Shown one piece after another: positions 4,657-63,985 of a DNA stretch of 64,000 nucleotides. The stretch spans positions 62,241-126,240 of the forward strand of contig JBCCQA010000003.1 of the NCBI GenBank assembly GCA_039024635.1. Direction: 5' to 3'. Each line of letters starts with the position of its first letter. Positions within the stretch are counted from its first letter, which is position 1. Made by a program: the position numbers and the translations under genes. The notes beneath the pieces are model-generated. The model did no database searches and was not told the DNA's origin. It worked only from the letters and a program-made list of their open reading frames with translations. The stretch is from Myxococcota bacterium. GTDB lineage: Bacteria > Myxococcota > Kuafuiibacteriia > Kuafuiibacteriales > Kuafuiibacteriaceae.

Positions 4657-4689
4657 CCTCCAAGACTCCCCAGCCATAGACTGCCGAGG

Positions 4690-5259
4690 GTGAGATGGCC
4701 GGTCTTCATCCTCTTCGGGGCTTGCGCGCTTGGCGCCTGGAGCACCGAAGCGGAGGCCAGCCGGCTTAGGCCCAGGCCCTTGCACCAGTCTTTGGCCCAG
4801 GCCGACTTCGTCGGTCGGATTCGAATACTCGAACCCAGCGCTGAGAGCCCTTCGGGAAGAGACCGTTCCTCCTATGCGGCCCACTTCTCGGTGAAGATCG
4901 AGGTCGTCGACGTCCTGCAGAACTCGGGGATGCCGCATCCAAAGCTCGTCCACTGCAACATGATCCGTGCCCAGCTCGAGGCCCGTGGCCCCGTACTCGA
5001 GGGTTGCTTCGGGGAGAACCTCCCTGGGTCTTGCTCGGCCGAATACAAGGAGATCGCCCATGAGCGCCTGAACCTCCCGGGCGAGCTTCGCTTCGAAGAC
5101 GACTGTAGTGCTTGGAGCGGTCGGTCCCGGGCCTGTCTGGCTCGCGTATTGTGCGAGCGTCCGGTCGCCGTCACGAAGTGGGGAGAAGACGGTCCTCTGA
5201 CCTTCGGCTTCACGGTCGGGCGACAAGAGGGCGCCGTCGTCTTCACGGACGTACACTGA
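4690..5259 (+). CDS. Hypothetical secreted protein with several Cys residues
   Basis: Signal-peptide-like N-terminus (MRWPVFILFGACALGAWSTEAEA); TAGACT 7 nt before GTG; fills the gap between neighbouring genes. Confidence 0.6.
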   Translation: MRWPVFILFGACALGAWSTEAEASRLRPRPLHQSLAQADFVGRIRILEPSAESPSGRDRSSYAAHFSVKIEVVDVLQNSGMPHPKLVHCNMIRAQLEARGPVLEGCFGENLPGSCSAEYKEIAHERLNLPGELRFEDDCSAWSGRSRACLARVLCERPVAVTKWGEDGPLTFGFTVGRQEGAVVFTDVH

Positions 5260-5303
5260 GCCCTCGCCTTGCTGCCCACTGGGGAGGCTGGTAGCCGAAG
5301 AGT

Positions 5304-7442: not shown

Positions 7443-7715
7443 CGGGCGCTCGCGCCCGTTCGAGCAACGAGGCCACGGGTCGGAGACATCATCTCGATGA
7501 GCTTTTGGGGCGATCCCATCTTGGAAGAGCAGATAATCATCCTCGACTACGATGCTGGCAGCGAGACGCTGCGGCTTCTCGAAGCGAACGGTCTCAGTCC
7601 GCCCGAACGAGTCGACATCAATCGCCTGCCTTCGGCCCCTATCCCAGCTACAAGAGAGGCGCACAGAGTCCTCGCTCTCCACCGGACGCGACTCGAAAGG
7701 TGCTACGTTCGGTGC

Positions 7716-8144
7716 ATGCGTCCACTCTCCGTCGTGCCCCTCGTCTTCTGCGTTTTCGTTCTGGGTCTTGGTCTGGGGAAGGCCTCTCAGGAGTCGGCCG
7801 CCACCGTCCTGCACCTGGACGAGCTCCCGGTGAAGCACGCTGCGAGCGGCAAGGCGAGGGTTCAGATCATGGGTCGAGGTCGGAATGCCTTCGTCGGTCG
7901 TCTGGAGCTCGACGCAGGGGCCAAGGTGCCTCTGCACCGGGACGCCACCGAGGAGTACATCCACGTCATCGAGGGTTCCGGGACGATGACGATCGAAGGG
8001 AAGACCTATGAAGTTCGAAAAGGCACGACCATCTACATGCCCGCCAACGCCGAGGTCAGCTTCGAGAACGGGCCTCAGACCATGGTCGGGCTCCAGGTCT
8101 TTGCCGGCCCCGGGCCCGCCGCCAAGTACGACGCCTGGAAGTAG
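7716..8144 (+). CDS. Secreted cupin-domain protein
   Basis: Signal peptide from ATG 7716; cupin motifs VPLHRDATEEYIHVIEGSG and GTTIYMPANAEVSF; TACGTT 6 nt before the ATG. Confidence 0.85.
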   Translation: MRPLSVVPLVFCVFVLGLGLGKASQESAATVLHLDELPVKHAASGKARVQIMGRGRNAFVGRLELDAGAKVPLHRDATEEYIHVIEGSGTMTIEGKTYEVRKGTTIYMPANAEVSFENGPQTMVGLQVFAGPGPAAKYDAWK

Positions 8145-8176
8145 ACGCGGCCCGTGAATCAAGAGGCCTTCGTAGG

Positions 8177-8197: not shown

Positions 8198-8216
8198 GAG
8201 AAATCTCATCATTTTC

Positions 8217-9148: not shown

Positions 9149-9151
9149 CCA

Positions 9152-9180: not shown

Positions 9181-9226
9181 GCGTTCACCTAGACCCCAAA
9201 CGCCACGGCTCGCTATCGTGGGACCC

Positions 9227-9730
9227 ATGAGCATGCTGGGCAGCTTTCGCCTGGGTCCTCTCCAAGGCGCCCTCAAGGCGGCAACTTACGTGCTCTTCTC
9301 ATTGCCGATTCTCATCCTCAGCCTTGGCTTCATCATGGGGGGATGGGCCCGAAGCCTTTGGGTGCCCGTCTTCCTCTTGGTTCTCTATCTCGTCGTGTGG
9401 CTCGTCTTCCGCCCGCGGGAGCTTCTTTGGGAGCAGGACGACCTTGTGATTCGCTTCCCGCTCCGAACTCGCCGCATCCCGAAGGCCGACATCGAAAGGG
9501 TGGAAGTCTTGAGCAAGCCCGATACCCAGGCGCGACTGGGAAGCGCCGTCCGCTTCGGCGTCGGCGGCCTGTTCGGCGTCTTCGGTCGGCTGTGGACGAG
9601 CCGAGAAGGCTTCGTGGACGTGTACCTGACCCGCTCCGAAGACATCGTGTGGATCCATCGCCGAGGCGGTCGACCCATTCTCGTGACCCCGGAGACGCCA
9701 CATGCCTTCGCCGAGGCCTTCTCGAGCTGA
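9227..9730 (+). CDS. Membrane protein with bacterial PH domain
   Basis: Two N-terminal TM helices, then LVIRFPLRTRRIPKADI, RFGVGGLFGVFG and ILVTPETP motifs typical of bPH proteins. Confidence 0.8.
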   Translation: MSMLGSFRLGPLQGALKAATYVLFSLPILILSLGFIMGGWARSLWVPVFLLVLYLVVWLVFRPRELLWEQDDLVIRFPLRTRRIPKADIERVEVLSKPDTQARLGSAVRFGVGGLFGVFGRLWTSREGFVDVYLTRSEDIVWIHRRGGRPILVTPETPHAFAEAFSS

Positions 9731-12577: not shown

Positions 12578-12610
12578 CTAAAATTGCGGCGTCTGGTCTA
12601 AATTCCCGCC

Positions 12611-14005
12611 GTGGCCCTCAGAACTCAGCTCTTGATGGCCGTGGTCGGTCCCGCCCTCTTGGTCCTAGTCGGCGTCCTGTGGATGGTGGACGTTTCCAGC
12701 CAGGCCGCCCTAGAGGCCTCTCTGGGGCGTCGTTTGGTCTCGGTTGCCCAGGGCGCCGCCGCCCTGATCCCGGGACGAGTGGTGCTTCTGGGTGAAGGTG
12801 ACGACGAGCGACGTACGGCACGCAGCGCCCGTAAGAAACTGGCCGACCTCGCGGCGGCGGCCGGCGTGCCCCGGCTCGTCGTGGCCACCGAACGGGGGGT
12901 CGTCGTCGACTCCTCGCAAGCCCGGCGGATCGGCGAACCCTATCTGCGGGCAGCAGTCGACGCCTTCGAACTGAGCCAAGTCGAAGGGGGCGAAGGGGTG
13001 GCCTCTCTCCTCTTCGAAGGAGCCGACGGTCGTCCCCACAAGACGGGGTACGCGCCCTTTCTCCACGAAGGCGAGATCGCCGGCTACGTAGCGGCCATGG
13101 CGCCCGCGGACTACACCCAGGCCTTGGGCCGACTACGAACTAGGCTCCTTGGGGGGGCTGGCTTGGGCTTGGCCGTATTGGTCGTCCTGGCTCTCACCGT
13201 CGCCCGCTGGATGTCGGTCCCGCTCTCCCGACTGGCCCGGGCCGCCCGCCGGATCGGCGAGGGTGAGCTCGAGACAAGGGTCGCGGTCGAGGGTCCCCGG
13301 GAGGCCCAGGTCTTGGCAACGACCATGAACCGCATGAGCGAGGCTTTGCGGGCCCGCGATCTCCGGCTTCAGATGATGCTCTCCGGCATCGCGCACGAGG
13401 TTCGAAATCCGTTAGGAGGGATCGAGCTCTTCGGGGGCCTTCTGCACGAGGACCTGGAGATAGGCGATCCTCGCAGAGGTCACGTCGAGCGGATCTTGTC
13501 CGAACTTCGGACCCTCTCGAAGGTGGTGAACGACTTCCTGGAGTACGCGAGGGAGCGACCGCCCGAGCTCGAGACCCACTCGGCGGTCGCGCTTCTGCGA
13601 GATGCTTGGGAGATGACCGCCTCCGAGGCTCCGTTCCAGCTCGAAGATCACAGCGAAGTAGGCATGGTCGTGGTGGACGGCGACCGGATGCGGCGGGCGC
13701 TCATGAACCTCCTGCAGAACGGCGCCCAGGCCGCGGCGGGGGGCCAGGTCCGAGCGACGGTCGAAGACCGAGACCAGGAACTCCTGCTGACCATCGAAGA
13801 TGCCGGACCCGGCATCCCGGCCGACATCAGGTCTCAGATTTTCGAGCCCTTCTTCACCACGCGTCAAAAAGGGACGGGTCTCGGTTTGGCCCTGGTGAAC
13901 AAGACGGTGAACGAGGTCGGGGGCCAGGTCGAGCTGGGCGAGTCTTCTCGTCTCGGCGGCGCACGCTTCGAAATTCGGCTCCCGAAGTCCGCAGGCTCTC
14001 GGTAG
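12611..14005 (+). CDS. HAMP-domain sensor histidine kinase
   Basis: Two TMs, HAMP, H-box IAHEVRNPLGGI, N-box NLLQNGAQA, DAGPGI and FFTTRQKGTGLGL. Confidence 0.95.
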   Translation: MALRTQLLMAVVGPALLVLVGVLWMVDVSSQAALEASLGRRLVSVAQGAAALIPGRVVLLGEGDDERRTARSARKKLADLAAAAGVPRLVVATERGVVVDSSQARRIGEPYLRAAVDAFELSQVEGGEGVASLLFEGADGRPHKTGYAPFLHEGEIAGYVAAMAPADYTQALGRLRTRLLGGAGLGLAVLVVLALTVARWMSVPLSRLARAARRIGEGELETRVAVEGPREAQVLATTMNRMSEALRARDLRLQMMLSGIAHEVRNPLGGIELFGGLLHEDLEIGDPRRGHVERILSELRTLSKVVNDFLEYARERPPELETHSAVALLRDAWEMTASEAPFQLEDHSEVGMVVVDGDRMRRALMNLLQNGAQAAAGGQVRATVEDRDQELLLTIEDAGPGIPADIRSQIFEPFFTTRQKGTGLGLALVNKTVNEVGGQVELGESSRLGGARFEIRLPKSAGSR

Positions 14006-14014
14006 TCTCTGTGC

Positions 14015-15445
<1,431 letters not shown>

Positions 15446-18412: not shown

Positions 18413-18781
18413 TCAGGTGCTGAAGCTCGAGCCGCAGCCGCAGGTGGTGCTGGCGCCCGGGTTGTTGAACTTGAAGCCCGACCCCTGGATGCCCATGACG
18501 TAGTCGATGGAGGTCCCCTCCAAGTGCATGGCGGAGATCGGGTCGACGAACACCCGAAGCTCGTCGAAGACCATCTCGAAGTCCCCGAACTTGGGCTCGT
18601 TGTCGAAGTCCAAGCCGTACTGGAAGCCTGAGCAGCCTCCGCCCTGTACGAAGATCCGCAGACCGTACGTGTCATCGAACTTCTCGGCCACGATGGCCTC
18701 CTTCACCATTTCGATGGCTTTGGGGGTCAGCTCGACGGGCGGCTCCTCGTTCGGACCGAGCAGGACGTGTGCGGTGCTCAT
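18413..18781 (-). CDS. erpA: A-type Fe-S cluster carrier (IscA/ErpA/HesB family)
   Basis: GGGCSGFQY, GFKFNNP and TCGCGSSF motifs. Confidence 0.93.
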   Translation of the reverse strand: MSTAHVLLGPNEEPPVELTPKAIEMVKEAIVAEKFDDTYGLRIFVQGGGCSGFQYGLDFDNEPKFGDFEMVFDELRVFVDPISAMHLEGTSIDYVMGIQGSGFKFNNPGASTTCGCGSSFST

Positions 18782-18856
18782 CGGCAAAATCCTAGCATCG
18801 CCGGTCCTGGGGTAAAGACGATTCGCTTTCCGGGCCCGCCTAGGAGATGGGAGGCC

Positions 18857-19333: not shown

Positions 19334-19372
19334 CAGGGGTCGACTTCGGGCACCCGATGCTAGCGTCCCTTC

Positions 19373-20341
19373 ATGGAGACTCGACGTCTGGGTCGGACTG
19401 GACTGTCCGTGAGCCGCATCGGTTTGGGGACGGCCGCTCTCGGCCGGCCCGCCTACATGACCCTCGGCCGAGAGCGAGACTTTCCGGAGGGTCGCTCGCC
19501 CCAAGAAATGGCGAGCCGCACCTTCTCTCTTCTCGACGTAGCCAGGGCACGCGGCGTGGCCTACATCGACACCGCCCGATCCTACGGCCAAGGGGAGGGC
19601 TTCGTCGCCGACTGGCTGTCCGATCGGGACATCGAGCCCGGCTCCATCTGCGTGGGGTCCAAGTGGGGCTATCGCTATGTGGGAGCCTGGCGGATGGACG
19701 CCGAGATCCACGAGACGAAGCAACTGGACCTGCCCACCTTGGAACGGCAGTGGGACGCGAGTCGCAAAGTGCTGTGGACTCATCTCGACCTCTATCAGGT
19801 CCACTCCATCACACCCAATCACCCGGTCCTCGAGGACGAAGCGGTCTGGGCTCGTCTCGCTCTGCTTCGAGCGGAGTTCGGGGTCCGAATCGGGGCCACC
19901 GTGAGCGGGCCCCGACAATCCGAGACCATTCGCGCCCTCCTCGACCTCCGGGTCGACGGAGAGCCGATCGTTGAGTCCATTCAAGCGACCTGGAACCTTC
20001 TGGAGCCGAACGCCGGTCCAGCCCTGGCCGCGGCCCACGATGTGGGCGTCGGCGTGATCATCAAGGAAGTCCACGCCAACGGCCGGCTAGCCGATCCGGA
20101 GGAGCTACCCCCTGGCCTGATCCAGGAAGCACGTCAGGCCGGCCTCCCCATCGACGCGTGGGCCCTGTCGGCTGCGCTGGCTCAGCCCTGGGCAGACGTC
20201 GTCCTCTCGGGCGCGGTGACCCGAGCGCAGCTGATGAGCCATCTGCGCGCCGACGGTCGAAGATTCGATGCCGACATCGAGGCCTTCCGAGAAACTCCAG
20301 AGTCCTACTGGGCACGCCGGGCCCAGCTTCCTTGGGGCTGA
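19373..20341 (+). CDS. Aldo/keto reductase
   Basis: LGRTGLSVSRIGLG, IDTARSYG, VGSKWG and LDLYQVHS motifs. Confidence 0.92.
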   Translation: METRRLGRTGLSVSRIGLGTAALGRPAYMTLGRERDFPEGRSPQEMASRTFSLLDVARARGVAYIDTARSYGQGEGFVADWLSDRDIEPGSICVGSKWGYRYVGAWRMDAEIHETKQLDLPTLERQWDASRKVLWTHLDLYQVHSITPNHPVLEDEAVWARLALLRAEFGVRIGATVSGPRQSETIRALLDLRVDGEPIVESIQATWNLLEPNAGPALAAAHDVGVGVIIKEVHANGRLADPEELPPGLIQEARQAGLPIDAWALSAALAQPWADVVLSGAVTRAQLMSHLRADGRRFDADIEAFRETPESYWARRAQLPWG

Positions 20342-33431: not shown

Positions 33432-33460
33432 TTGACACCTTGATGGGCCTCACCTAAGCG
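33432..33460 (+). promoter_or_regulatory. Putative sigma70 promoter of the OmpA-family gene (leaderless geometry)
   Basis: TTGACA-N17-TAAGCG, then 6 nt to GTG 33467. Confidence 0.55.
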
Positions 33461-33466
33461 CGAACC

Positions 33467-37328: not shown

Positions 37329-37350
37329 GCACCGATGCTAGGCCGCTGAG
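37329..37350. promoter_or_regulatory. Symmetric bidirectional promoter between divergent genes
   Basis: TAGCAT (minus, 37340-37335) and TAGGCC (plus, 37339-37344) share the central TA; each lies 6 nt from an in-frame candidate start. Confidence 0.6.
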
Positions 37351-43907: not shown

Positions 43908-46109
43908 TCAACGTTTCGAGAGCGTGACGTCCCACGTGCTCGGTAGCTCGGCCGCCGAACCAAACCGGCGCTGGTAGGGAAGGAACCCAGGGGCCTCGAC
44001 CCGAACCTCGACTTCACCCTCGGGCAAGGCTTCGAGGGCGATCCGGGTCCCCGTGCCAACGACCTTGCCTCCTATCGAGACGGTGGCTTCGGGCTGAACG
44101 TGGAGGACGGGAACCGGTCGGAGATCGACCGACATCCGGTACACCCGACCGCGGCGAACAGTCCCTACCAAGGCTCGGGCTTCGGGGCGGTGGTCTCGCA
44201 AACGAAACTCGACCCTTGGCCCCTGGCCGGGACGTACTCGGACCGTAGTGGGCGTCCGACCCCGATTCTGCCCGTCGACCGAAACGACGGCACCCGGCGG
44301 TCGGCTGACCAGTTCCACCCTGGGCCAGAGCAACGGGCTGGTCAGACCAAAGACCACACCGAGCCCTACGAGAAGGCTGATGGCACCGACCAAGAGCCAG
44401 GCTCGGCGTCCGAGAAGCGGCCGTCTCGCCAGGACCGAAGCCGGCGGCTCAGGCACCGAAGGAAGGGGGGGCGGTGCGGGCACAGGCGCCGGCTCGGAGC
44501 CGGGGCGAGGCGCCCGGCCTCGGCTCTTCTCTCGAATGGGCCGGCTGGGCAGTCTCTGGAAGGGCCCAGGTCTGGACGAGCCTCTGGGTTCAGGCGCCGG
44601 CGGATGCTCCTCTTCGAAGTAGGGTGCGGGAGCTCTAGGCGTAACGAGGACTGGGCCGACAGGACCCGAGGGCTCCAGAGTCGGCGCCGAGCGCGCAGGC
44701 TCGACCTCGGACTGGGTGGGCGCAGGTATGTGGATGGAGGCATCGGAGGGCTGAGTGTCTCTGTCCTCCGGCATTCGAAGCCCGGCAAAGGTTCGATCGT
44801 CTAGACCCTCGTTGGATTCCTCTTCGGGAGCAAGACTTCCCAGCCAGGTTTGGTCGTCCTCGAGAAACGGCCCGTCGGCCAAGGTCCGGTCGTCGAGCTC
44901 GGCCTCCGCCCTTCCCGAATCGTCCGGAAGCATCGGCTCGTGGTCGAGGGAGGTCTGCGCCGGTCGCTGCCTCGGCCCAGCATCTGTCGGTCGGTCCATG
45001 ACCGCAGGCGGGAAGTCCTCGGGCTCGAGCACCAGATCATCCGAGCCCGCGAGGGGGTCGACCCTACGGGGCGCTTCCGTGGGCTGGGTCCCACTTCCGT
45101 AGGACGGATCGAGCTGGGAGCTAGCCCTCGACCAAGCCGCTTCCATCCGCGCTTTGGAGACCGGTGCCTCGAAGGTAGCCGGCAGTAAGGTGCGCAGCGC
45201 CCCCTCCAGGTCCGAAGCTCGGCCCAGACGCAGCGACTTCGGCGCCATTTCCACTGCGTTTCGGAGCGCAGACTCCCAAGCGCTGGCGTCGGGCCATCGC
45301 TTGCCCGGGTCAGGCTCGAGAGCTCGCATGATGACGGAGTCGAGGACGGCCGGAAGCTCGGGCGCGAGCACACTCGGGGCTTCGACCTCTCGCCGCTCGT
45401 ACATCTCCATCGCCTCGAAAGCCGTCTTGCCCGCCGCCGGGTGTCGACTGGTCAGAAGAAGGTAAAGGCTGACGCCCGCACAGAAGACATCGGCTCGGCG
45501 GTCCATGTGCTGAGTGCGAACGGCTTCGGGCGGCAAATAGCCGAACTTGCCCTTCACCACCCCCGCCTGGGTTTGGTGGATTCGGTTTCGAGCCCGAGCG
45601 ATGCCGAAGTCGGTGAGCTTCACCTCCCCACCCGCAGAAAGCAGCATGTTGGCGGGGGTCACGTCCCGGTGAACGATGTTTAGCGGACGGCCTTCATGGT
45701 CCTTTCGGTCGTGGGCGTAGCGAAGGGCACGGGCGACCTCCAGAGTGACGAAGATGGCGACCGAGGGGTCAGGCCTGGTCCCTCGATCATGGGCCGCGTC
45801 GACCAGGGCCTGGGCGGTGCTGCTCTGCACGAACTCCATGACGAGGTAGTGAGCCCCGCGATCCTCGTCGAAATCCAAGACCGAGACGATGTTCTGGTGG
45901 TCGAGGTACATCGAGATCTTGGCCTCGTCGGCCAGCATCTCGATGAACTTGGGGTCAGCCTGGAATTCGTCCCTGAGGAGCTTGAGCGCCACCAGCGGCC
46001 CCAGACCCAAGGGCCCAGCCTTACTGGCCAGATAGACGTCACCCATGCCGCCCGAGGCGAGGCGATTCAGGAGCACGTAGCGGCCGAGCACGTCACCAGG
46101 CTGGCGCAC
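43908..46109 (-). CDS. Hanks-type Ser/Thr protein kinase with TM and PEGA domains
   Basis: LASGGMGDVY, VALK, HRDVTPAN, DFGIA and GKFGYLPPE motifs; acidic/Pro linker; TM; SRPPGAVVSVDG...TP (PEGA). Confidence 0.94.
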   Translation of the reverse strand: MRQPGDVLGRYVLLNRLASGGMGDVYLASKAGPLGLGPLVALKLLRDEFQADPKFIEMLADEAKISMYLDHQNIVSVLDFDEDRGAHYLVMEFVQSSTAQALVDAAHDRGTRPDPSVAIFVTLEVARALRYAHDRKDHEGRPLNIVHRDVTPANMLLSAGGEVKLTDFGIARARNRIHQTQAGVVKGKFGYLPPEAVRTQHMDRRADVFCAGVSLYLLLTSRHPAAGKTAFEAMEMYERREVEAPSVLAPELPAVLDSVIMRALEPDPGKRWPDASAWESALRNAVEMAPKSLRLGRASDLEGALRTLLPATFEAPVSKARMEAAWSRASSQLDPSYGSGTQPTEAPRRVDPLAGSDDLVLEPEDFPPAVMDRPTDAGPRQRPAQTSLDHEPMLPDDSGRAEAELDDRTLADGPFLEDDQTWLGSLAPEEESNEGLDDRTFAGLRMPEDRDTQPSDASIHIPAPTQSEVEPARSAPTLEPSGPVGPVLVTPRAPAPYFEEEHPPAPEPRGSSRPGPFQRLPSRPIREKSRGRAPRPGSEPAPVPAPPPLPSVPEPPASVLARRPLLGRRAWLLVGAISLLVGLGVVFGLTSPLLWPRVELVSRPPGAVVSVDGQNRGRTPTTVRVRPGQGPRVEFRLRDHRPEARALVGTVRRGRVYRMSVDLRPVPVLHVQPEATVSIGGKVVGTGTRIALEALPEGEVEVRVEAPGFLPYQRRFGSAAELPSTWDVTLSKR

Positions 46110-46195
46110 CCGGGGAGTATGGCATCCTTGCCGGCCTGGAAGCGAAATCTCGTCCTCGGTCCCGTCTGGGCCAGCGCCGATGCTAGGATGGAAGG

Positions 46196-48052
46196 GTGCT
46201 GGCCCTTTGGCTCGCCCTGCTGGCCGGCGCCGAGCCGAGCCTGGTTTCGGTGCGCACCACTCGAGGCGCCATCGACGGCCCTCACTTGGGGGCCTTGGCC
46301 GAGCCACGGTGGGACCGCCTCCAGCTTCGGGTCGAAATAGAAAACCGACTCCCCGTGGCCGTGACCGACCTGGAGCTTGGGATCGAGCTTCTTCGCGACG
46401 AGACGCCCATCCCCGGTTGGGCCTTTTCCATCGAGCTCGCCGAGCCCTTCTTGCCCGACAGCCTTCGGGAGGTCGAGATCGACGAGTCCTTGCTCGACCG
46501 TCGCGGCGCCGTGAGAGCAGACGAGCTCCGGTACCGGGTCGAGCTTCGGCGCTACCGCATGACCCCTCCCCGACTGGACGTTGCCCTGGAGGCGCTGGGG
46601 TCCTCTTTCGACGCCGACCAGCGAGCGGCGTTGGTCAGCTTCGATGCTGGACTCCTCGGCGCGCGAGAGCGACTAACGGCGATCGAGGACGTAGAGCGGG
46701 TCCTGGTCTCTCCGCCCGCCTCGCCCAGTGCCAAGGATGCACTGGCGCTCCTGACCGCCCTTCGGGCGCTGGGCCGCCTGCAGGCCGCCGGACACGTCGA
46801 TGGGCTGCTCACCCTAGAGGACCAGCTCGATCCCGATGCCTGGGGTCGAGCGGTGATGCGCCTGGCAGAGCGCATGCTCGACGTGTCCCCCCGAGACGGG
46901 GCTCGACTCGAAGTCCTTCCTCGTTGGGCGCGAGAGCGATCCGGCCTCCTCCGAGTCCGAGCCAGCGACGCAGTGAGAGAGGCGATTCGAGACGCGGTCT
47001 TGACCATGGGCGATGCCGCCATCCCGCCTCTGGTGCGGGCCCTCCATGGGCCTGGTCGTTCGGCCTCGGTCCGAGAGCGAGCTTGGCAGCTCCTGGTGAG
47101 CCTGGGTCGTCCGACCGTCAGCTCCCAACTTCGGGTCTCTCGCCTCCAAACGAGACTGGAGGTCATAGAGGCCTTCGGCGAGCTCGGCCTGGCCGACGCA
47201 GCCCCGAGGCTGGTCGAGCTCGTCAGAGTCTCCGGCGGTCGGGTGGGACGGGCGGCCCGGCGGGCCCTGGGTGCCCTGGGCCCCGCTGGTCTATCCGCCC
47301 TCGAAGACGGTCTGGGCCTGGACGACGACCGCATCCGAGACGCCTTGCGGGAGCTGGGTCCGGCCGGGCGCGAAGCAGAGATCCGCCGTCGAAGCGAGGC
47401 GGCCCGCGAAGAGCAGCGTCGCGCCATCGAAGCGCGGATCGAAAGGGCCCTTGGAGATCCGGACCGGGACCGCGCCCTTCGGGAGCTGCAGTCTCTGGTC
47501 GACGCCGACCAGCTCTTGGGACACCGCCGCCCCGTCGCCGAACGCTACCGGGATGAAGTCTCGGCCCAGCTGCAAGCGGGAAACTTCGACGAAGCTCTGC
47601 GACTAAGCCGGGTCGGGCGCGACGTCGAGGCGCTGCCCGCCTTCGAGCTTCTGGGCGCCGAGGCGAGGCTGGCCCTCGCCGACGGCTTGGGCGACCTCGG
47701 TCAGTGGGAGCGCGTTCAGGACTTCTTGCAATCCGACTTTCCCCAAGCCCTCGAAGCTCGGGTGCGTCGGCTCCGGGAGCGCCGCTGGGAGGCCCTTGCG
47801 ACCGAGGCGGCTAGCCTGGGCAACCGAGCCCGAGCCCGACTCTTAGTGGAGGAGGCGAAGTCGGCAGGGGTCACGAGTCCCGTCCTGGACCGACTGGATC
47901 GAAGACTCTTGCTCAACGAGAACCTCCCTTTTCTCGTAGGGGGCGTCCTGTCGGGCTTCGCCATACTCCTGGCCTTGAGCCTCTGGGTTCTCCGCCGGAT
48001 GGAGAGTGTCCGGATGGAGCGACTCCAGGCCGCCCTCGACCAGCCTGACTAG
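46196..48052 (+). CDS. HEAT-repeat membrane-anchored protein
   Basis: Signal peptide; HEAT-like repeats (VREAIRDAVLTMGDAAIPPLVRAL); C-terminal TM. Confidence 0.75.
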   Translation: MLALWLALLAGAEPSLVSVRTTRGAIDGPHLGALAEPRWDRLQLRVEIENRLPVAVTDLELGIELLRDETPIPGWAFSIELAEPFLPDSLREVEIDESLLDRRGAVRADELRYRVELRRYRMTPPRLDVALEALGSSFDADQRAALVSFDAGLLGARERLTAIEDVERVLVSPPASPSAKDALALLTALRALGRLQAAGHVDGLLTLEDQLDPDAWGRAVMRLAERMLDVSPRDGARLEVLPRWARERSGLLRVRASDAVREAIRDAVLTMGDAAIPPLVRALHGPGRSASVRERAWQLLVSLGRPTVSSQLRVSRLQTRLEVIEAFGELGLADAAPRLVELVRVSGGRVGRAARRALGALGPAGLSALEDGLGLDDDRIRDALRELGPAGREAEIRRRSEAAREEQRRAIEARIERALGDPDRDRALRELQSLVDADQLLGHRRPVAERYRDEVSAQLQAGNFDEALRLSRVGRDVEALPAFELLGAEARLALADGLGDLGQWERVQDFLQSDFPQALEARVRRLRERRWEALATEAASLGNRARARLLVEEAKSAGVTSPVLDRLDRRLLLNENLPFLVGGVLSGFAILLALSLWVLRRMESVRMERLQAALDQPD

Positions 48053-48522: not shown

Positions 48523-48657
48523 GTCTGCAGTCTGGTCCGGGTCCCACCGGCTGTCAGCCTTCCTAGTGTGCGAGCACAAAGTTCTGATCACTTGTCGTCG
48601 GACCTGAAACGGATCGAACTCCATGACCGGCCCACTAGCCAGTGCTACGATGCCGGG

Positions 48658-49512
48658 GTGAAGCAGTGGCTTCCGTGGGTCCTCTGCCTATGGCCGAGCC
48701 TCGCCCAAGGCCAAAACTTCGAATGCTCCCCGGCCACGGGCTCGTCCTTCACCCAAGTCTGGACCGACAGCAATCGCTGCATCCCCGTGGCCGTCGGGCG
48801 CCAGGGGGCCTTGGTTCGAGAGCGAGCGTCGATCGTGGAGTCCGCCTTTCGCCGGTGGTCTCGCTCGCCATGCTCGGACGTGGAGTTCGAGTTTCGGGGC
48901 GAGACCAGCGCACCCATCGGCTTCGACCCCCGTCTTCGCGATAACGAGAACGTCGTCCTCTCCACCAACGACGCCGATATGTTGGCGATGTTCGGGGACC
49001 GACGTCTCCTGGCCGTGACCCTCACATCCTTCTCCACCGCCACGGGAGAGATCTTCGACGCAGACATCATCGTCAACGATGCGCTGTTCGACTTCGAACA
49101 GGTCGGCGACCCCAACAGCTGCGCCGCCAGCGGAGAGGAGGTCTTCGACCTCGAGAACACGCTGGCCCACGAGGTCGGCCACCTCCTTGGCTTCGCCCAC
49201 AACGAGGACGAGAGTTCGACCTTGTTCGGAAGCTCTCCCGCCTGCGAAGTCCAGAAGCGCAGCTTAGCGCCCATCGACGTCGACGGTCTGTGCGCGGTCT
49301 ATCCAGCCGAGGGAAGCAGCCAAGCTTGCCGAGCTCCTGATAGCTACGAGGTCGGTGATACCGGACCCTTTCGGAATCAGTGTCGAGGGGGCTGCCAGTG
49401 CCGAGATTCCGGACGGCGCGAGGAGAACAGCCTGTGGCTCTTGTTGGGTCTGGCTCTCTTGATGGCGGCCCGGCACACACCATGGTGCAGAGCAGGCCTC
49501 AGCGGAAGATGA
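48658..49512 (+). CDS. Matrixin-like zinc metalloprotease with MYXO-CTERM-like C-terminal sorting signal
   Basis: DADIIVN and HEVGHLLGFAH (HExxHxxGxxH) motifs; C-terminal GGCQC...LWLLLGLALLMAARH. Confidence 0.87.
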   Translation: MKQWLPWVLCLWPSLAQGQNFECSPATGSSFTQVWTDSNRCIPVAVGRQGALVRERASIVESAFRRWSRSPCSDVEFEFRGETSAPIGFDPRLRDNENVVLSTNDADMLAMFGDRRLLAVTLTSFSTATGEIFDADIIVNDALFDFEQVGDPNSCAASGEEVFDLENTLAHEVGHLLGFAHNEDESSTLFGSSPACEVQKRSLAPIDVDGLCAVYPAEGSSQACRAPDSYEVGDTGPFRNQCRGGCQCRDSGRREENSLWLLLGLALLMAARHTPWCRAGLSGR

Positions 49513-54869: not shown

Positions 54870-54875
54870 CGGCGG

Positions 54876-58413: not shown

Positions 58414-58465
58414 GGCTTCCTTCATTCCTCTCTGGGCCTGGGGAGTTGAGCCAGGTAGCCTGGCG

Positions 58466-59314
58466 ATGGTGTCGGGCTTGGTGCAGCTGGGGCCGGGAAG
58501 CGAAGCCGACGCGCTGGAGTTTTGCGCCCGTCAGCCTGAGCACACGCTCGTCATCGCGGGATGGCTCGGAGAGGGAGGCCTTCGCCGCTCGGACAAGACG
58601 CAGAAGGCATGGCTGTTCGCCGAACAGGACGAGCAGCGACGGGTGCAGGGCCTGGTCTACGTATCGGACAACGGCATCGTCCTGCCCGTCCTCCGCTCTC
58701 GCTCGGCCCTCGACGCGCTGGTAGAACTCGGGGCCCGAAATCCACAGGTGATTCGGGTGGTGGTTGGTGAACGCTCCACCGTCGATCACCTGCTGCGGGC
58801 CTGGGTGCCCCGAGGCTTTCGACCCAGACTTCACCGTGATCAGCTAGCCTACGTCGTGGGCGAGGACGGCTTCTCTCCCCATGGTAACGTCGAGCTCCGA
58901 CCGGCCGAACCCGAAGACCTGGATGCCCTCGTCGAAGCCTCGGCTGAGATGGCCCGTGAGGAAGCGGGCGACGACCCCCAGGCCCGAAATCCGGGACTGT
59001 TCCGAAGCCGCATCAAGAAGCGCATCGAGCGAGGACGAGACTTCGTCTTGATGACTTCCCAGGGGCTGTCCTTCAAGAGCAACGTGGCTGCCCTCTCTTC
59101 TTTTGGCGGCCAAGTCGAGGGCATCTTCGTTCCACCTGCTCACCGTCAGCAGGGCCTCGGCCTGAAAGGAACGAGCTGGGTGACTCGGTGGATCCTAGAC
59201 CGGGCGCCTCGGGCCTGCTTGCTCGTGAACGAAGACAACCAGGGAGCCAAGCGCCTTTACCTTCGCTTGGGCTACGTCCTCAGTCACTCTAGTCGGACGT
59301 CATTTTTCGCTTGA
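58466..59314 (+). CDS. GNAT-family acetyltransferase (DUF4081-like N-terminus)
   Basis: QVEGIFVPPAHRQQGLG (motif A) and LLVNEDNQGAKRLYLRLGY motifs. Confidence 0.88.
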   Translation: MVSGLVQLGPGSEADALEFCARQPEHTLVIAGWLGEGGLRRSDKTQKAWLFAEQDEQRRVQGLVYVSDNGIVLPVLRSRSALDALVELGARNPQVIRVVVGERSTVDHLLRAWVPRGFRPRLHRDQLAYVVGEDGFSPHGNVELRPAEPEDLDALVEASAEMAREEAGDDPQARNPGLFRSRIKKRIERGRDFVLMTSQGLSFKSNVAALSSFGGQVEGIFVPPAHRQQGLGLKGTSWVTRWILDRAPRACLLVNEDNQGAKRLYLRLGYVLSHSSRTSFFA

Positions 59315-61596
59315 AGCGAGTCCGCCTCTGCTTCGAGGCGGTCGGCGTCGAACAAGCCGTTTTCCGACAGCATCTTCAAGGCGGCGGCGAAGCGGGTTCT
59401 CAGGTGGGTGCCCTCGGTCTCCCGAAGCCAGTGAGCCCACTCAGGCTCGGGCGTTTCGAAGCGCGTGTCTTCGTCGAAGACGTTCGGGTCCTGCACGTCC
59501 TCGGTCGTCTGGGAGGAGGCGTCCAATGCCGGGATCTCGTCGGTTTGCGGAACCAAGGCATCGACTGACTCGGCGTCCCGAAGGTCCCCGGTTTCTGCCT
59601 CGTCCGAAGCAACGACCTCGGGCGGCGGCGGCTTCGGCCGCTCTTCGACGTCCTGGGTTGGAGCTGCCGAGTCGGACTCGACGGCGGAGGATGCGCCTCG
59701 GTCTCTCACCGCTTCCGAGGCCGCATCGGCCCCGAGTCCATCCAATAGGTCCCCCCACTTCAGGCTGGGATCCGGCGTGCTGCGCTCCCTCGGAGCCGGC
59801 GTTCGGGACGCGGCCGGGCTGGAGACGACGGAGGCGGGGGAGGGGGCGCGGGTTGCCACCACCGCGGGTGGCTCCGGGACCCGCTCGGAGAAGTCACTGA
59901 GGGCCTCTGGGGAGAATTCGGGCAGGTCCTGAGAGACATGGACTTCGGGTTTGTGGAATGAGGGCTCGTTTTCGGACTCGGAAGCAAACTCCAGCTGACC
60001 CTCTTCTTCAGAAGCCGAGCCCTGTACTTCTTCCGAGAGACGATCCAGGACTTCGTGCTGAACGGCTTCCGGCCCCGTCGCGAAAGCCACGGCCTCGACT
60101 CGCTCAGCCTCGGGCGGCGGGCTGGCGTCGGCGTCCTCGATGGGCGCATCCAGGGCTTCCGCGTCCACCTCCGCGTCATCTTCCCTGGGTGCCGCCAACG
60201 CTTCGGCATCGTCCTCGGAGGGTGCAGCCAGGACTTCGGCATCCACCCCGACGTCGTCCTCGAAGGGCGCCGCTAGGGCTTCGGCGTCGACCTCCGCGTC
60301 GTCTTCGAGGGGTGCATCCAGGGCTTCGGCATCGACCTCCGCGTCATCCTCAAGGGGCACAGCCAGGGCATCCACGTCGACCTCGGCGTCGCCCTCGAGG
60401 GGCGCAGCCAGAGCCTCCGCGTCGATCTCGGCGTCGCCCTCGAGGGGCGCAGCCAGGGCCTCCGCTTCGACCCCAGCGTCAACCTCGAAGGGCGCAGCCA
60501 GGGCTCCGGCGTCGACCTCCGCTTCGTCCTCAATGGGGGCAGCCAGAGCCTCGGCGTCGATACCCTCTTCGGTCGGCGCCGCCTGGGCATCTGCATCCAC
60601 GCCATCATCTGCGTCGACAGGCTCAGACAAGGACTCGGCGTCCGTCTCCCCATCTTCGATGGGCTCCAGCTCCTCGAGCACCTCTTCCTCGTCCAGAGGT
60701 TGAATGTCTCGAGACTCGGCAAGCTCGATGGCTTCGACGTCTTCCCTCTTCGGGGCGAGGTCCAAGGAGACGGAGTTGCCGTCCGCCGGCCCCTCGTCCA
60801 CATCGACGCTATCGATGCCCTCAAACTCGTCTTCGACCGGCTGCATGTCGGCGCTCTGCAGCGTAGCAAAGGCGTCGTAGCTCAGCCCGTCAGCGGGGGC
60901 TTCCTCTTCGGACCACTGCCCTTGGTCAAACTGCGGACCCTCGAAGTCGGTCTGGAGGTCGAAGGCGCCGGGTTTTCCAAACAGCGCAGACGGACTTCGG
61001 GAGGGCGGTCTGCTCGGTTGGGAAGACGGCGCCGAAGTCGCTGGCCGCTGGGGAAGATCCTTCTTGAACGGAAGGCCCTGCACGACGGGCACGCCTTGGT
61101 AGTAGCTAGGGCCTTGGGGAGCCTGGGACGCTCGCTGGGGAGCTGACCGTCCGTACTTCTTCTCGAGGGCGAGCTCCATCTCGGTCTCACCCGCCAACAT
61201 CCAGTGCACCCGTGCCCCCGAGCCCAGGGCCTGTCGAACCGCCTCCATGGCCCGCTGATCTAGAGGGTCGGCCAGGGCGACGTACACGACGTCCATGTCG
61301 CCTTCCCGCTTCCGTGCGACGGGCATGACCCGGAGCTCGAGCGCGGTCTCGACCGGGATCAGCGCCAGCACTTTGGGATGAACGGGTGCTTCGACCGGGT
61401 CGCAACTATCAATTCCGAGCTGCCGAGAGAGCGCGTGGGTCAGTCGTTCTTCGGTGATGACGGAGTTATCGACGAGGATCTTGCCCAAGCGGCCGCCCTT
61501 CTCCCGCTGCTGCCGGAGGGCCGCGTCCAACTGGACTTCATCGATGAAGCCAAGGTCGACCAGAAGCTGGCCGAGCCTCGGGGGCGAGGGCGACAT
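59284..61596 (-). CDS. Large MshEN/GspE-N domain protein with long acidic, repeat-containing disordered region
   Basis: RLGQLLVDLGFIDEVQLDAALRQQ and RLGKILVDNSVITEERLTHALSRQ tandem MshEN motifs; VALADP; no ATPase domain. Confidence 0.88.
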   Translation of the reverse strand: MSPSPPRLGQLLVDLGFIDEVQLDAALRQQREKGGRLGKILVDNSVITEERLTHALSRQLGIDSCDPVEAPVHPKVLALIPVETALELRVMPVARKREGDMDVVYVALADPLDQRAMEAVRQALGSGARVHWMLAGETEMELALEKKYGRSAPQRASQAPQGPSYYQGVPVVQGLPFKKDLPQRPATSAPSSQPSRPPSRSPSALFGKPGAFDLQTDFEGPQFDQGQWSEEEAPADGLSYDAFATLQSADMQPVEDEFEGIDSVDVDEGPADGNSVSLDLAPKREDVEAIELAESRDIQPLDEEEVLEELEPIEDGETDAESLSEPVDADDGVDADAQAAPTEEGIDAEALAAPIEDEAEVDAGALAAPFEVDAGVEAEALAAPLEGDAEIDAEALAAPLEGDAEVDVDALAVPLEDDAEVDAEALDAPLEDDAEVDAEALAAPFEDDVGVDAEVLAAPSEDDAEALAAPREDDAEVDAEALDAPIEDADASPPPEAERVEAVAFATGPEAVQHEVLDRLSEEVQGSASEEEGQLEFASESENEPSFHKPEVHVSQDLPEFSPEALSDFSERVPEPPAVVATRAPSPASVVSSPAASRTPAPRERSTPDPSLKWGDLLDGLGADAASEAVRDRGASSAVESDSAAPTQDVEERPKPPPPEVVASDEAETGDLRDAESVDALVPQTDEIPALDASSQTTEDVQDPNVFDEDTRFETPEPEWAHWLRETEGTHLRTRFAAALKMLSENGLFDADRLEAEADSLQAKNDVRLE
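60139..60615 (-). repeat. About 11 imperfect tandem 45-bp (15-aa) coding repeats, consensus EDDAEVDAEALAAPL
   Basis: Units such as EGDAEIDAEALAAPL, EDDAEVDAEALDAPL and EDDAEVDAEALAAPF, visible in both DNA and protein. Confidence 0.92.
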
Positions 61597-61714
61597 CGCA
61601 CGAACGGTAATCGCCTTCGGAAACTCTCGCAAATCCGGGACTTTGGCCAACGCCTCGTCCCGAGTCGTGACGACAAATTGGCGGTCTTGTCCTCACTGTC
61701 GCATGATCGGCCCC

Positions 61715-62074
61715 ATGTTCCGCTTCTTGTACCGGGTCCTCCTATTTGGGGTGCTGGTGTGGGGTTCCTTCGTGCTCGAGTACCAGGGAAAGCCGGTTCG
61801 CTGGTACGTCCAAGACTGGGCGGCTGGAGCCTTGGAGCGGGCCTGGCCCATCGGTCGCGAGCTGGCTCGAGACGTGTGGATGAAGCAGGTCCCGTCGCCC
61901 GAAGAGGCGGCACGCCCGTCCCGAGAGAGAGCCTCGTCACGAGTAAAGGCTTTGGCCGAAGCGCGGGAACGGATCGCCCCAGCCAAAGCGCGGGAAAACC
62001 TCGACTACGATCGACCTCAAAGCGCCAAGGAGCGGCGCGAACTCGACGAACGCCTGCAGCGCGGGCTCCGATGA
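61715..62074 (+). CDS. Small membrane-anchored hypothetical protein
   Basis: N-terminal TM (MFRFLYRVLLFGVLVWGSFVL); basic helical C-terminus; ends 4 nt before the rhomboid gene. Confidence 0.65.
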   Translation: MFRFLYRVLLFGVLVWGSFVLEYQGKPVRWYVQDWAAGALERAWPIGRELARDVWMKQVPSPEEAARPSRERASSRVKALAEARERIAPAKARENLDYDRPQSAKERRELDERLQRGLR

Positions 62075-62078
62075 GCTC

Positions 62079-63182
62079 ATGGACGATCGCTCCGTCCGCA
62101 CCTGCCCGAAGTGCGGAGCGCTCATCACGCCCCAACTGGACCGCTGCCGGGTGTGTGGGACCTATCTCCACGGAACAGCCTTTGAAGGCTTCCTGGTCGA
62201 GCATCTGCTCCCCCCTCAGCTCCGCGCATCTCCAGGCACCGGGCTGATCGCGCTTCTCATCGGCCTGTTCTTCGTTTTCCAGTCCTTGGTCGCCGGTCCG
62301 ATCCAGGTCTTTTCTTTTAGCCCCTACAGCCTGAGAGCGCTGGGCGGCCTCTTCGGCCCCGACATCGTGATGGGCGAGTGGTGGCGCTTCGTCACTTCGA
62401 TGTTCGCTCACGGTGGGCTTCTTCACCTCGGCTTCAACCTCTACGCCCTCACCATCATCGGCCCCGTGGTCGAGCAGCTCTTTGATCGCAAGAAGATGTG
62501 GACCCTCTACGTCGCGAGCGGGGTCCTCTCGATGGTAGCGAGCTACACGTGGAACGTGGAGGTGAACGGTCAGCTCTTCTCCGCCTCGGTCGGCGCTTCC
62601 GGCGCGATCTCCGGCCTCATCGGCGCCACCATCGCCGGGGGTCGTCGGGAAGGTCCTCGCGGGGCCATCCTGGTCAGGATCTGCGCCCGGTGGGCGCTGT
62701 ACATGGTGATCTTCGGACTTCTGGTCCCGGGCATCGACAACGCGGCCCACGCAGGAGGCTTCCTCGCCGGCTTGGGCCTGGGCCAGATCGTACCCCTCGG
62801 CCTCACGAAGTCCGTGGCCGCGAATCGAGCTCTGTCGGTGCTGATGCTAGGCGTATTCGCAGGCATCGTCTTCTGTTTCGCCGCGATGTTCGACGGCCTT
62901 CGTCGAGGACCTGGCTCCTTGGCCGACGACGCCTATCCGAGCTCATTCCTCTTTCTCACCCTCAGAAAGGGGACGGATTGGGATCAATCCACTCAGTATC
63001 TTGCAATCCAAGACTGTGAATCAGCGCTGAGGGGTGAAGCCGACGCGGTCGAAGCCTGCCGATTCGCGGTCCGCGCTCACCCCCATCCGGTCACCTACCA
63101 GATGCTCGCTCGGGCCTACCGTGAGGCCGGCAACGAGAAGGCAGTCGATCGCCTCCGACCCGTCCTCCGACGCCTGCGTTGA
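62079..63182 (+). CDS. Rhomboid-family intramembrane serine protease with N-terminal zinc ribbon
   Basis: CPKC...CRVC; WRFVTSMFAHGGLLHLGFN, GASGAISG (catalytic Ser) and AHAGGFLAG (catalytic His) motifs. Confidence 0.93.
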   Translation: MDDRSVRTCPKCGALITPQLDRCRVCGTYLHGTAFEGFLVEHLLPPQLRASPGTGLIALLIGLFFVFQSLVAGPIQVFSFSPYSLRALGGLFGPDIVMGEWWRFVTSMFAHGGLLHLGFNLYALTIIGPVVEQLFDRKKMWTLYVASGVLSMVASYTWNVEVNGQLFSASVGASGAISGLIGATIAGGRREGPRGAILVRICARWALYMVIFGLLVPGIDNAAHAGGFLAGLGLGQIVPLGLTKSVAANRALSVLMLGVFAGIVFCFAAMFDGLRRGPGSLADDAYPSSFLFLTLRKGTDWDQSTQYLAIQDCESALRGEADAVEACRFAVRAHPHPVTYQMLARAYREAGNEKAVDRLRPVLRRLR

Positions 63183-63298
63183 GCGGGGTCCGGTCAGCCG
63201 CCAGCGCGGCCCGCCTGAACTCCGCCAAATCCTCCTACCTCGTCCGTGCGGACGGCTAATGTGTAGGCCAGAGCTAGCGCGCCCCCTAGTCTCGGCCC

Positions 63299-63985
63299 AT
63301 GACCCAAGGGAAAGTGATGCTGGTGACCGGCGGCTCAACGGGCATCGGCGCGGCCACTGCAAAACGAGCCCAGGAAGCCGGCTGGCGCCTCGTGCTCGGG
63401 GCACGCTCGATCGACAAGCTCGAAGGCCTGGCCAAAGAGCTCGGAGATGGGGTGGCCTACGCTGCCTGTGACGTCACCAAGTTCGAAGAACTGCAGGCCC
63501 TCACGGAACTGGCCGTGTCTCGCTTTGGAGGCATCGACGCGGTCTTCGCCAACGCAGGCATCGGCGGCAGCCCGGGGGGCTTCTCCGGAGCCAATCGTGC
63601 GCACTGGAAGACCATGATCATGACCAACGTCTTCGGCCTAGGCCTCACCTTGCAGGCCACCCTTCCCGCTTTGAAGAAGAGTCGAGGTCACGTCCTCATC
63701 ACCGGCTCGGTGGCCGGTCGGCGCACCCTCGGTGGCTCGATGTACTCGGCGACCAAGTGGGCGGCCAACGCCATAGGCTACAACTTGAGGGAGGAACTTC
63801 GAGGCACCGGCGTCCGAGTGACGGTGGTCGAGCCCGGCGTGGTCGACACCCCCTTCTTCGACGACCCCAAACCTGACGGCCTGCGCCCAGACGACGTGGC
63901 GAGAAGCGTGATGTACGCGATCGAGCAGCCTCCTAGCGTCGACGTCCACGAACTGCTGGTGCTGCCGACACCCCCCGCGAAGTAG
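63299..63985 (+). CDS. SDR family oxidoreductase (YdfG-like)
   Basis: TGGSTGIG, FANAG, YSATK and VEPGVVDTPFF motifs. Confidence 0.93.
   Translation: MTQGKVMLVTGGSTGIGAATAKRAQEAGWRLVLGARSIDKLEGLAKELGDGVAYAACDVTKFEELQALTELAVSRFGGIDAVFANAGIGGSPGGFSGANRAHWKTMIMTNVFGLGLTLQATLPALKKSRGHVLITGSVAGRRTLGGSMYSATKWAANAIGYNLREELRGTGVRVTVVEPGVVDTPFFDDPKPDGLRPDDVARSVMYAIEQPPSVDVHELLVLPTPPAK

Follow-up and report, generated by a model that had tools for sequence, protein, structure and literature searches.

The window, a stretch of 64,000 nt, belongs to an uncultured marine Myxococcota MAG of 5.26 Mb, and twelve of its genes carry an exact TANNNT hexamer 12 or 13 nt before an ATG or GTG. These twelve sites had been listed in an earlier note that also proposed a myxobacterium-like host; every site was confirmed, and the host assignment was borne out. 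Starts are named below by position, with a minus sign for the minus strand. The hexamer lies at -12 (6-nt spacer) before 7716, 12611, 14015, 19373, 46196, 48658, and 63299, and at -13 (7-nt spacer) before 4690, 9227, 18781-, 58469, and 61596-. The sites, with box, spacer, start codon, and product, are:

4677..4692, plus strand: TAGACT, 7 nt, GTG; 189-aa protein, no Pfam match
7704..7718, plus strand: TGcTACGTT, 6 nt, ATG; 142-aa cupin protein
9214..9229, plus strand: TATCGT, 7 nt, ATG; 167-aa bacterial PH-domain protein
12599..12613, plus strand: TAAATT, 6 nt, GTG; HAMP histidine kinase
14003..14017, plus strand: TAGTCT, 6 nt, ATG; NtrC-type sigma-54 activator
18779..18794, minus strand: TGcTAGGAT, 7 nt, ATG; 122-aa IscA/ErpA-type Fe-S protein
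19361..19375, plus strand: TGcTAGCGT, 6 nt, ATG; aldo/keto reductase
46184..46198, plus strand: TGcTAGGAT, 6 nt, GTG; 618-aa protein, weak HEAT match
48646..48660, plus strand: TGcTACGAT, 6 nt, GTG; matrixin-like peptidase
58456..58471, plus strand: TAGCCT, 7 nt, GTG; GNAT acetyltransferase
61594..61609, minus strand: TACCGT, 7 nt, ATG; 770-aa MshEN-domain protein
63287..63301, plus strand: TAGTCT, 6 nt, ATG; short-chain dehydrogenase

Start-Adjacent Boxes in the Window

An extended TGn motif precedes the box at five of the twelve sites (7716, 18781-, 19373, 46196, and 48658), in keeping with the "several" of the earlier note. Its statement that most sites lack a Shine-Dalgarno (SD) sequence also stood: no SD-like 4-mer occurs between -18 and -4 at ten sites, and the matches at the other two are the AGGA within the TAGGAT hexamer itself. 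Of the two genes that it had named as properly SD-led contrasts, ALDH has GGAGG at 6-nt spacing, whereas korA has just 1 nt between GGAGG and its ATG at 184, which is not proper spacing.

The start at 4690 is the first in its ORF and lies 12 nt from the onset of coding potential; no orthologue was found among the loci fetched from relatives. For 9227, coding onset is at 9209, the bPH_5 domain covers residues 67-165, and the longest ORF (from 8984) would run into a divergent SDR gene. The start at 12611 is likewise the first of its ORF, in a gene divergent from amt; retention of its box at one of three orthologous loci lends it weak support. The box at 46196, where the start coincides exactly with coding onset in a gene divergent from a Ser/Thr kinase, is kept at one of two distinct orthologous loci, which is again weak support. 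In the gene at 63299, adh_short begins at residue 5 and coding onset is at 63296. At 7716, support for the start is moderate: the orthologous open frames measure only 160 and 173 aa, and one orthologue carries TATCCT-N6-ATG. The apparent coding onset is 237 nt farther upstream, and the genome-wide set described below therefore missed this site.

Orthologues back the starts at 18781-, 48658, 58469, and 61596-. The orthologous open frames of the Fe-S protein at 18781- span 124-126 aa in three same-genus genomes, and TANNNT precedes the ATG at four of five orthologous loci. For 48658, TANNNT stands before the aligned start at six of seven distinct orthologous loci; for 58469, with coding onset at 58460, the box is retained at eight of twelve. 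Upstream of 61596-, TAGNNT or TACCGT occurs at -13 to -15 before the aligned ATG at five of eight orthologous loci, with differing spacer sequence. The aldo/keto reductase at 19373 has its Pfam domain from residue 15 and TANNNT at -12 in all three orthologous loci. The activator at 14015 has its receiver domain from residue 5, and TAGNNT precedes the ATG at all three orthologous loci. The TAG of this box doubles as the stop codon of the upstream kinase, so the two genes may share a transcript; alternatively, the box may serve as an internal promoter. At these six genes, spacers diverge among orthologues but the box persists ahead of the aligned start.

A long minus-strand ORF at 18413-19309 was considered as an upstream gene fused to iscA and was rejected, as the plus strand scores better there (24.5 vs. 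4.2 for the minus strand) and its translation is protein-like; the longer ORF on the minus strand is an antisense shadow.

Six further starts (5304, 33467, 37351, 46109-, 54876, and 61715) had been listed as near matches and do carry TANNNV or NANNNT at -12 or -13. Four of them are:

33432..33469, plus strand: TTGACA, 17 nt, TAAGCG, 6 nt, GTG; OmpA-family protein
37336..37353, plus strand: TGcTAGGCC, 6 nt, ATG; short-chain dehydrogenase
46107..46124, minus strand: TGcCATACT, 6 nt, GTG; Ser/Thr kinase
61702..61717, plus strand: CATGAT, 7 nt, ATG; 119-aa protein

A perfect TTGACA lies 17 nt upstream of the hexamer at 33467, and the single orthologous locus retains TTGACA-N17-TAGATT, farther from its start. 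One relative has TAGACC at -12 before its counterpart of 37351, and across the genome TAGNNV hexamers have their peak at -12. Where 61715 has CATGAT, the closest relative has CATGCT. The grpE near match at 54876 was rejected as a member of the class, with TANNNT at none of eleven distinct orthologous loci.

Counted across the window, TANNNT-N6-RTG occurs 9 times against 5.06 expected (9 or more were reached by 5 of 100 shuffles) and TANNNT-N7-RTG 11 times against 5.16 (reached by 1 of 100). Twelve of these 20 matches, with about 10 expected, are the listed sites. Box sites at 12 of about 50 genes place the window above the genome average. A two-hexamer scan with the E. coli consensus over positions 4000-20500 and 44001-64000 recovered none of the twelve sites, with counts at chance (2 vs. 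1.1 and 1 vs. 1.2); such a scan is too strict for high-GC promoters. The window by itself is weak evidence; the whole genome is decisive.

Position of the Box Across the Genome

The genome-wide set comprised 12,818 candidate starts from 4,106 genes. Genes and starts were called with our own codon-bias caller, which miscalled at least one locus (18413-19309). The stretch at 53700-63699 was traced to four DNA runs, all from one marine-metagenome study, and to no RNA run. The earlier note had proposed a positional count across the genome as the test of its claim, and the count revealed enrichment: TANNNT occurs 181, 103, 72, and 51 times at -12, -13, -14, and -15, against a background of 36.2 per offset. 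At -11 (5-nt spacer) the count falls to 25, under background. This hard edge indicates that every box leaves enough room for the start codon to be included in the RNA. About 109 of 356 strict-motif candidates are expected by chance.

The peak is tied to gene starts. None was seen at internal in-frame (n = 55,101) or out-of-frame (n = 27,213) ATG, GTG, or TTG codons; TANNNT reaches 49.9 per 1,000 starts within 20 nt of coding-potential onset against 9.2 expected, and its rate is at background level more than 60 nt inside genes. By start codon, the 354 box-bearing candidates divide into 171 ATG, 157 GTG, and 26 TTG, so that TTG is depleted (7% vs. 25% of all candidates). Among the 74 that have either TGn or a TTG -35 box, starts are 32 ATG, 38 GTG, and 4 TTG. 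The claim that the boxes correct over-extended starts was upheld, as 140 of the 354 strict candidates differ from the start of the longest ORF and six of the twelve window sites shorten the ORF.

Enrichment at these offsets could be an artefact of the TAG and TAA stops that bound ORFs, of the stop codons of upstream genes, and of home-made start calls. Indeed, the 180 hexamers at -12 include 136 whose first three letters, TAG or TAA, form an in-frame stop at that offset, and 10 that coincide with the upstream gene's stop codon. This explanation is scarcely credible: TGA, the commonest stop (3,264 of 4,242), has no peak at -12, and the offsets -13 and -14, which are out of frame, still peak, so the signal does not arise from ORF boundaries. 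Hexamers in TAC or TAT, which are never stops, peak as well (44, 34, and 25 vs. about 19), and an artefact would leave the -35 and TGn companions described next and the conservation among orthologues unexplained.

Promoter Companions and Transcription-Unit Heads

Elements expected of promoters accompany the box. TTG at a 16-18-nt spacer is found for 59 of 354 candidates (17%), against about 3.6 per flanking spacer, and TGn precedes the box in 66 of 354 (19%), compared with 202 of 7,379 intragenic TANNNT. With its -35 and TGn elements, the start-adjacent box has the properties of a promoter abutting the start codon.

The box is concentrated at genes that head transcription units. At divergent genes (n = 1,333), TANNNT at -15 to -12 numbers 198 against 49 expected and the TA dinucleotide 561 against 249, whereas operon-internal candidates have 28 TANNNT at -12 (8.3 expected) and an SD peak of 300 against 84. 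An unbiased trimer scan places TAG at -12 on top for divergent genes (94 vs. 8.2) and GAG at -11 on top for operon-internal genes. The net excess at the 1,333 divergent genes is 149 (11%) for strict TANNNT and 312 (23%) for the TA dinucleotide; of all genes, the net share is about 6% for the strict motif and about 16% for the dinucleotide. Roughly one gene in ten is predicted to have a -10 box placed for an mRNA that starts at the start codon, as are perhaps a quarter of operon-leading genes. The earlier note had called the architecture pervasive, with a large share of genes leaderless; the class is real, and its extent was overstated, at about 6-16% of genes and 11-23% of divergent genes.

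The box shares its distance from the start with a ribosome-binding site, and first genes here make very little use of SD, as would be expected if the box were a non-SD translation signal in leadered mRNA, e.g., an element some 10 nt ahead of the start that is unstructured or binds S1. That reading is very improbable. TTG at the 16-18-nt spacer and TGn move with the box, the distribution is cut sharply at -11, and the conserved letters (T, A, and the sixth T) are those of -10 elements; moreover, operon-internal genes need a translation signal too, yet they almost lack the box.

A less remote alternative, which we nevertheless consider unlikely, accepts the boxes as real promoters but takes most of them as secondary or internal, so that leaderless transcripts would be a minor or conditional fraction beside those from leadered promoters or read-through. 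The box at 14015, overlapping the stop codon of the upstream kinase, would suit such an arrangement, as would 51 net strict candidates that lie 25-60 nt behind a same-strand gene. Of 810 TANNNT hexamers located 20-45 nt upstream of starts, 85 also have TTG at a 16-18-nt spacing, which indicates that short-leadered promoters coexist. On the other hand, divergent genes, at which same-strand read-through is impossible, give the strongest signal, and most box starts (ten of twelve in the window) have no SD-like site to serve a leadered copy.

Probable Leaderless Expression From Promoters Abutting the Start Codon

Several hundred genes are very probably expressed leaderless, from sigma-70-type promoters that abut the start codon. 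The genome-wide peak and its edge, the promoter companions, the restriction to unit heads, the depletion of TTG, and the orthologues all favor the leaderless interpretation of the earlier note; the position of the transcription start and the mode of translation we infer from promoter geometry. Housekeeping sigma-70-type promoters would drive this class, with a -10 consensus of TAGNNT, often with TGn ahead and sometimes with a TTG -35 box 16-18 nt upstream, and with a -10 element predicted to end 6 nt, less often 7-9 nt, before the start codon. RNA polymerase usually initiates about 7 nt past the -10 hexamer, so the transcript would begin with the first base of the ATG or GTG, or 1-3 nt before it. 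The resulting mRNA would be leaderless, without an SD site, and would presumably be translated through a ribosome and an initiator tRNA that bind its 5′ start codon directly. SD sites serve operon-internal genes instead.

Relation to Known Systems

Such an arrangement has precedents. In D. radiodurans, the same box-to-start geometry was validated experimentally, and the box is a classical -10 element (PMC12340547). The Deinococcus-Thermus genes described as having a "-10 region adjacent to ORF" resemble those studied here in the fixed short distance of TANNNT before ATG or GTG and in the coexistence of a second class of genes with a ribosome-binding motif, which is GGAG there (PMC12340547, PMC4007540). 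Unlike in Deinococcus-Thermus, the third base in the present genome is mostly G (TAGNNT), and here the arrangement is predicted from sequence. The reported share is also far larger in D. deserti, with 47-60% leaderless mRNAs, against a predicted 6-16% or so of genes here (PMC4007540).

Actinobacteria (M. tuberculosis, PMC3898074) and group C of GeneMarkS-2 share with this genome the use of both ATG and GTG as 5′ start codons and a poorly conserved -35 element (PMC6028130). Group C is quoted at 25-50% leaderless transcripts (PMC6028130); the 11-23% of divergent first genes given here, a motif excess, lies at the bottom of that range or under it. The group was rare in Proteobacteria as then defined, with 104 of 1,854 genomes (PMC6028130).

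Closer in size is a prediction for δ-Proteobacteria, where TA-led genes were listed for 8 of 33 genomes at a mean of 15.8% (5.7-20.6%) (Zheng et al., 2011, PMC3160421). The in silico mark of that class is the same, with a TA-like signal roughly 10 nt ahead of the start, and its size matches the one found here. The genus of the present MAG is uncultured and lies outside that set, and the main text of the study names no myxobacterium (PMC3160421). Within the phylum, pexR of Myxococcus xanthus "may be" expressed from a sigma-A promoter as a leaderless mRNA (PMC12754779), which is the same proposed arrangement for one gene rather than for a genome-wide class. The literature searched yielded no genome-wide transcription-start mapping or leaderless statistics for Myxococcus, and such a study may exist elsewhere.

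Among six sampled relatives, which are kin and not independent samples, a leaderless-type signal is present in five and absent in one. The signal is thus not special to this lineage. A broader reading can be put forward only tentatively: in this uncultured marine genus, the leaderless arrangement might be the main recognizable start signal at unit heads, about twice as common there as SD, with SD almost confined to operon-internal genes and GUG as frequent as AUG on leaderless starts; across the phylum, the trait might vary in step with SD use, the one relative that lacks it having strong SD at first genes.

Leaderless expression is known in Deinococcus and Actinobacteria and was predicted for δ-Proteobacteria in 2011, and the present class involves no new mechanism. 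As a prediction, it extends appreciable use of leaderless mRNAs among bacteria to a marine, uncultured genus of myxobacteria and to several related families. For annotation, the consequence is practical: standard callers that look for a ribosome-binding site will put starts in the wrong place in this lineage. If the broader reading is true, Myxococcota would offer a Gram-negative clade for following, gene by gene, how evolution switches between SD-led and leaderless initiation.

Box-Bearing Starts in the Window

The earlier note proposed that many genes of this stretch are leaderless, with a −10-like TANNNT hexamer (the box) 6–7 nt before the start codon and mostly no Shine-Dalgarno (SD) sequence. 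Twelve starts were listed.

Box-bearing starts in the window, with retention of the box at orthologous loci for six
4690, plus strand
7716, plus strand, cupin
9227, plus strand
12611, plus strand; box kept in 1/3 loci
14015, plus strand, NtrC-type activator after a HAMP kinase; 3/3 loci
18781, minus strand, iscA-type
19373, plus strand; 3/3 loci
46196, plus strand; 1/2 loci
48658, plus strand, matrixin-like; 6/7 loci
58469, plus strand, GNAT; 8/12 loci
61596, minus strand, MshEN
63299, plus strand

All twelve hexamers lie where described, with their first base at −12 from the start codon in seven (6-nt spacer) and at −13 in five (7-nt spacer); five have TGn, the extended −10 motif, directly 5′. 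The lack of SD sequences at most sites also held, since ten lack any SD-like 4-mer from −18 to −4, and in the other two the apparent match is the AGGA contained in TAGGAT itself. The properly spaced SD claimed for korA (173–186) was not found: its GGAGG and the ATG at 184 are a single nucleotide apart, closer than a normal SD allows, so translation may really begin at another codon. Statistics from the window alone are weak (TANNNT-N6-RTG, 9 found vs. 5.06 expected; TANNNT-N7-RTG, 11 vs. 5.16), and 12 of these 20 matches fall on plausible gene starts. With 12 boxed genes among about 50, the window is above the genome average.

Genome-Wide Position of the Box

The assembly (5.26 Mb, 69 contigs, G+C 64.4%) has a canonical 16S 3′ end, and its DNA was found in four runs labelled marine metagenome from a single study (kind “DNA?”, library type without record). 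Among named sequences, its DnaK is closest to those of uncultured MAGs labelled Myxococcota, “Myxococcales” or “Deltaproteobacteria” (77–84% identity, one at 93–95%). A purpose-written codon-bias caller gave 4,242 genes (coding coverage 89.7%), and every in-frame ATG, GTG or TTG as far as 60 nt beyond the onset of coding potential was a start candidate. TANNNT was enriched genome-wide, with 181 occurrences at −12, 103 at −13, 72 at −14 and 51 at −15, but 25 at −11, against a background of 36.2 per offset; the sharp edge at −11 fits the need for the transcript to keep the whole start codon. Profiles were flat, with no TANNNT peak, for internal in-frame (n = 55,101) and out-of-frame starts (n = 27,213). 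Boxes occurred at 49.9 per 1,000 starts within 20 nt of coding onset (9.2 expected), and beyond 60 nt into genes the rate drops to the background level.

Because TAG or TAA at −12 would be in frame, an ORF-boundary artefact was tested in three ways. TGA, which accounts for 3,264 of the 4,242 stops, has no peak at −12; TAC and TAT hexamers, incapable of being stops, peak too (44, 34 and 25 vs. ~19); and the hexamer at −12 doubles as the upstream gene’s stop codon in only 10 of 180 cases. The box is real and statistically solid. Its net excess over all genes is 247 (6.0% of 4,106) for the strict motif and ~660 (16%) for a TA dinucleotide, the latter slightly inflated by in-frame stops, so that the boxed genes form a large class without being dominant, short of “pervasive.”

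Probable Promoter Character and Gene Context

When sequences are aligned on the hexamer, G appears two positions 5′ of it, as in TGn, and T-T-G 23 nt 5′ (a 17-nt spacer), moving along when the hexamer sits at −13 or −14. Among 354 strict candidates, 59 have TTG, the −35 element, at a 16–18-nt spacer (~3.6 per flanking spacer), a peak not seen for intragenic TANNNT hexamers, and 66 have TGn (vs. 202 of 7,379 intragenic hexamers). The most frequent hexamers (TAGCCT, TAGGCT, TAGCGT, TAGTCT) are not SD-like.

TTG at this spacer also accompanies 85 of 810 TANNNT hexamers 20–45 nt 5′ of starts genome-wide, suggesting that at many other promoters here the leader would be very short, ~8–33 nt. Separately, TTGAC(A/G/C) ~35–45 nt 5′ of the hrcA start (53685–53730) is kept in most Myxococcota loci (L001–L017, L048) with no TANNNT hexamer, and may belong to a promoter whose −10 element departs from the consensus and which gives a short leader or none.

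Among 1,333 genes with divergent upstream neighbors, TANNNT at −15 to −12 numbered 198 (49 expected, net 11%) and TA 561 (249 expected, net 23%), while SD-type 4-mers were hardly elevated (111–113 vs. 78). The 1,726 operon-internal candidates (same-strand neighbor within 25 nt) have an SD peak of 300 vs. 84, and 28 TANNNT at −12 (vs. 8.3). An unbiased positional trimer scan ranked TAG at −12 first for divergent genes (94 vs. 8.2) and GAG at −11 first for internal genes.

Start Codons and Stop Overlap

GTG is about as frequent as ATG among strict candidates (157 and 171 of 354; 12611, 46196, 48658 and 58469 in the window), as in the subset with TGn or −35 TTG (38 and 32), and TTG is depleted (26/354), whereas starts with GGAGG or AGGAG comprise 191 ATG, 91 GTG and 32 TTG. 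As the earlier note held, boxes correct over-extended starts: 140 of the 354 differ from the 5′-most start, with a median shortening of 61.5 nt. Genome-wide, TAG stops are enriched exactly 9 nt 5′ of the next gene’s start (27 vs. ~5 at adjacent distances) and TGA stops are not (30 vs. ~30), so the stop codon seems to serve also as the TAG of the box. At the kinase-activator junction (14003–14005) this overlap is present in 3/3 orthologous loci.

Conservation in Orthologues

The footprint search counted distinct loci; an in-frame start could lie anywhere within 45 nt, and the box at −12 to −15 (estimated chance match ~5% per locus). The grpE near match (54876) kept its box in 0/11 loci. The genome-wide candidate set captured 9 of the 12 window sites; 7716, 18781 and 61596 lie more than 60 nt past apparent coding onset, outside that set, and were therefore checked by orthology. 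For 18781, the open frames of orthologues from three genomes of the same genus span 124–126 aa and start at the same residue, and TANNNT precedes the ATG in 4/5 loci. For 61596, TAGNNT or TACCGT lies at −13 to −15 from an aligned ATG in 5/8 loci. The long form of 7716 cannot fit the open frames of two orthologues, which are too short, and one orthologue has TATCCT-N6-ATG.

A 296-aa minus-strand ORF near iscA (18413–19333) was rejected as an antisense shadow, as the plus-strand gene opposite scores better for coding. That gene (probable start GTG 18857, stop 19333) has no Pfam match, is divergent from iscA and has SD-like AGGAGA/GGGAGG 5′ of its start.

Relatives and Known Systems

The same pipeline was applied to six other genomes, with ~400 kb sampled per genome.

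TANNNT at −14 to −12, observed vs. expected
G000 (own genome): 356 vs. 109
G003 (same genus): 25 vs. 7.2
G009 (same family): 25 vs. 6.6; further boxes at −15 and −16
G006 (same family): 24 vs. 14.7
G020 (other family): 16 vs. 6.6
G016 (other family): 22 vs. 8.7
G014 (other family): 26 vs. 24.6

In the ~400 kb of G014 the box is not enriched and SD peaks are strong at divergent genes too (28 vs. 5.5), suggesting that leaderless and SD use may trade off within the phylum. As these relatives are kin and the samples small, the counts are taken to mean no more than that the box is widespread, though not universal, among Myxococcota.

This geometry is reported to drive leaderless expression experimentally in D. 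radiodurans (PMC12340547) and to underlie the leaderless transcriptomes of D. deserti (PMC4007540) and M. tuberculosis (PMC3898074). GeneMarkS-2 models it as “group C,” described as rare in Proteobacteria (104 of 1,854 genomes; PMC6028130), and TA-led genes were predicted in 8 of 33 delta-proteobacterial genomes, at a mean of 15.8% (Zheng et al., 2011; PMC3160421). No genome-wide leaderless or transcription-start study on myxobacteria turned up in the literature searched; one M. xanthus gene, pexR, was suggested to be leaderless (PMC12754779). The reading of the box as a −10 element giving a predicted leaderless mRNA was correct, and the boxed starts add one more case to a mode of expression that was already known.
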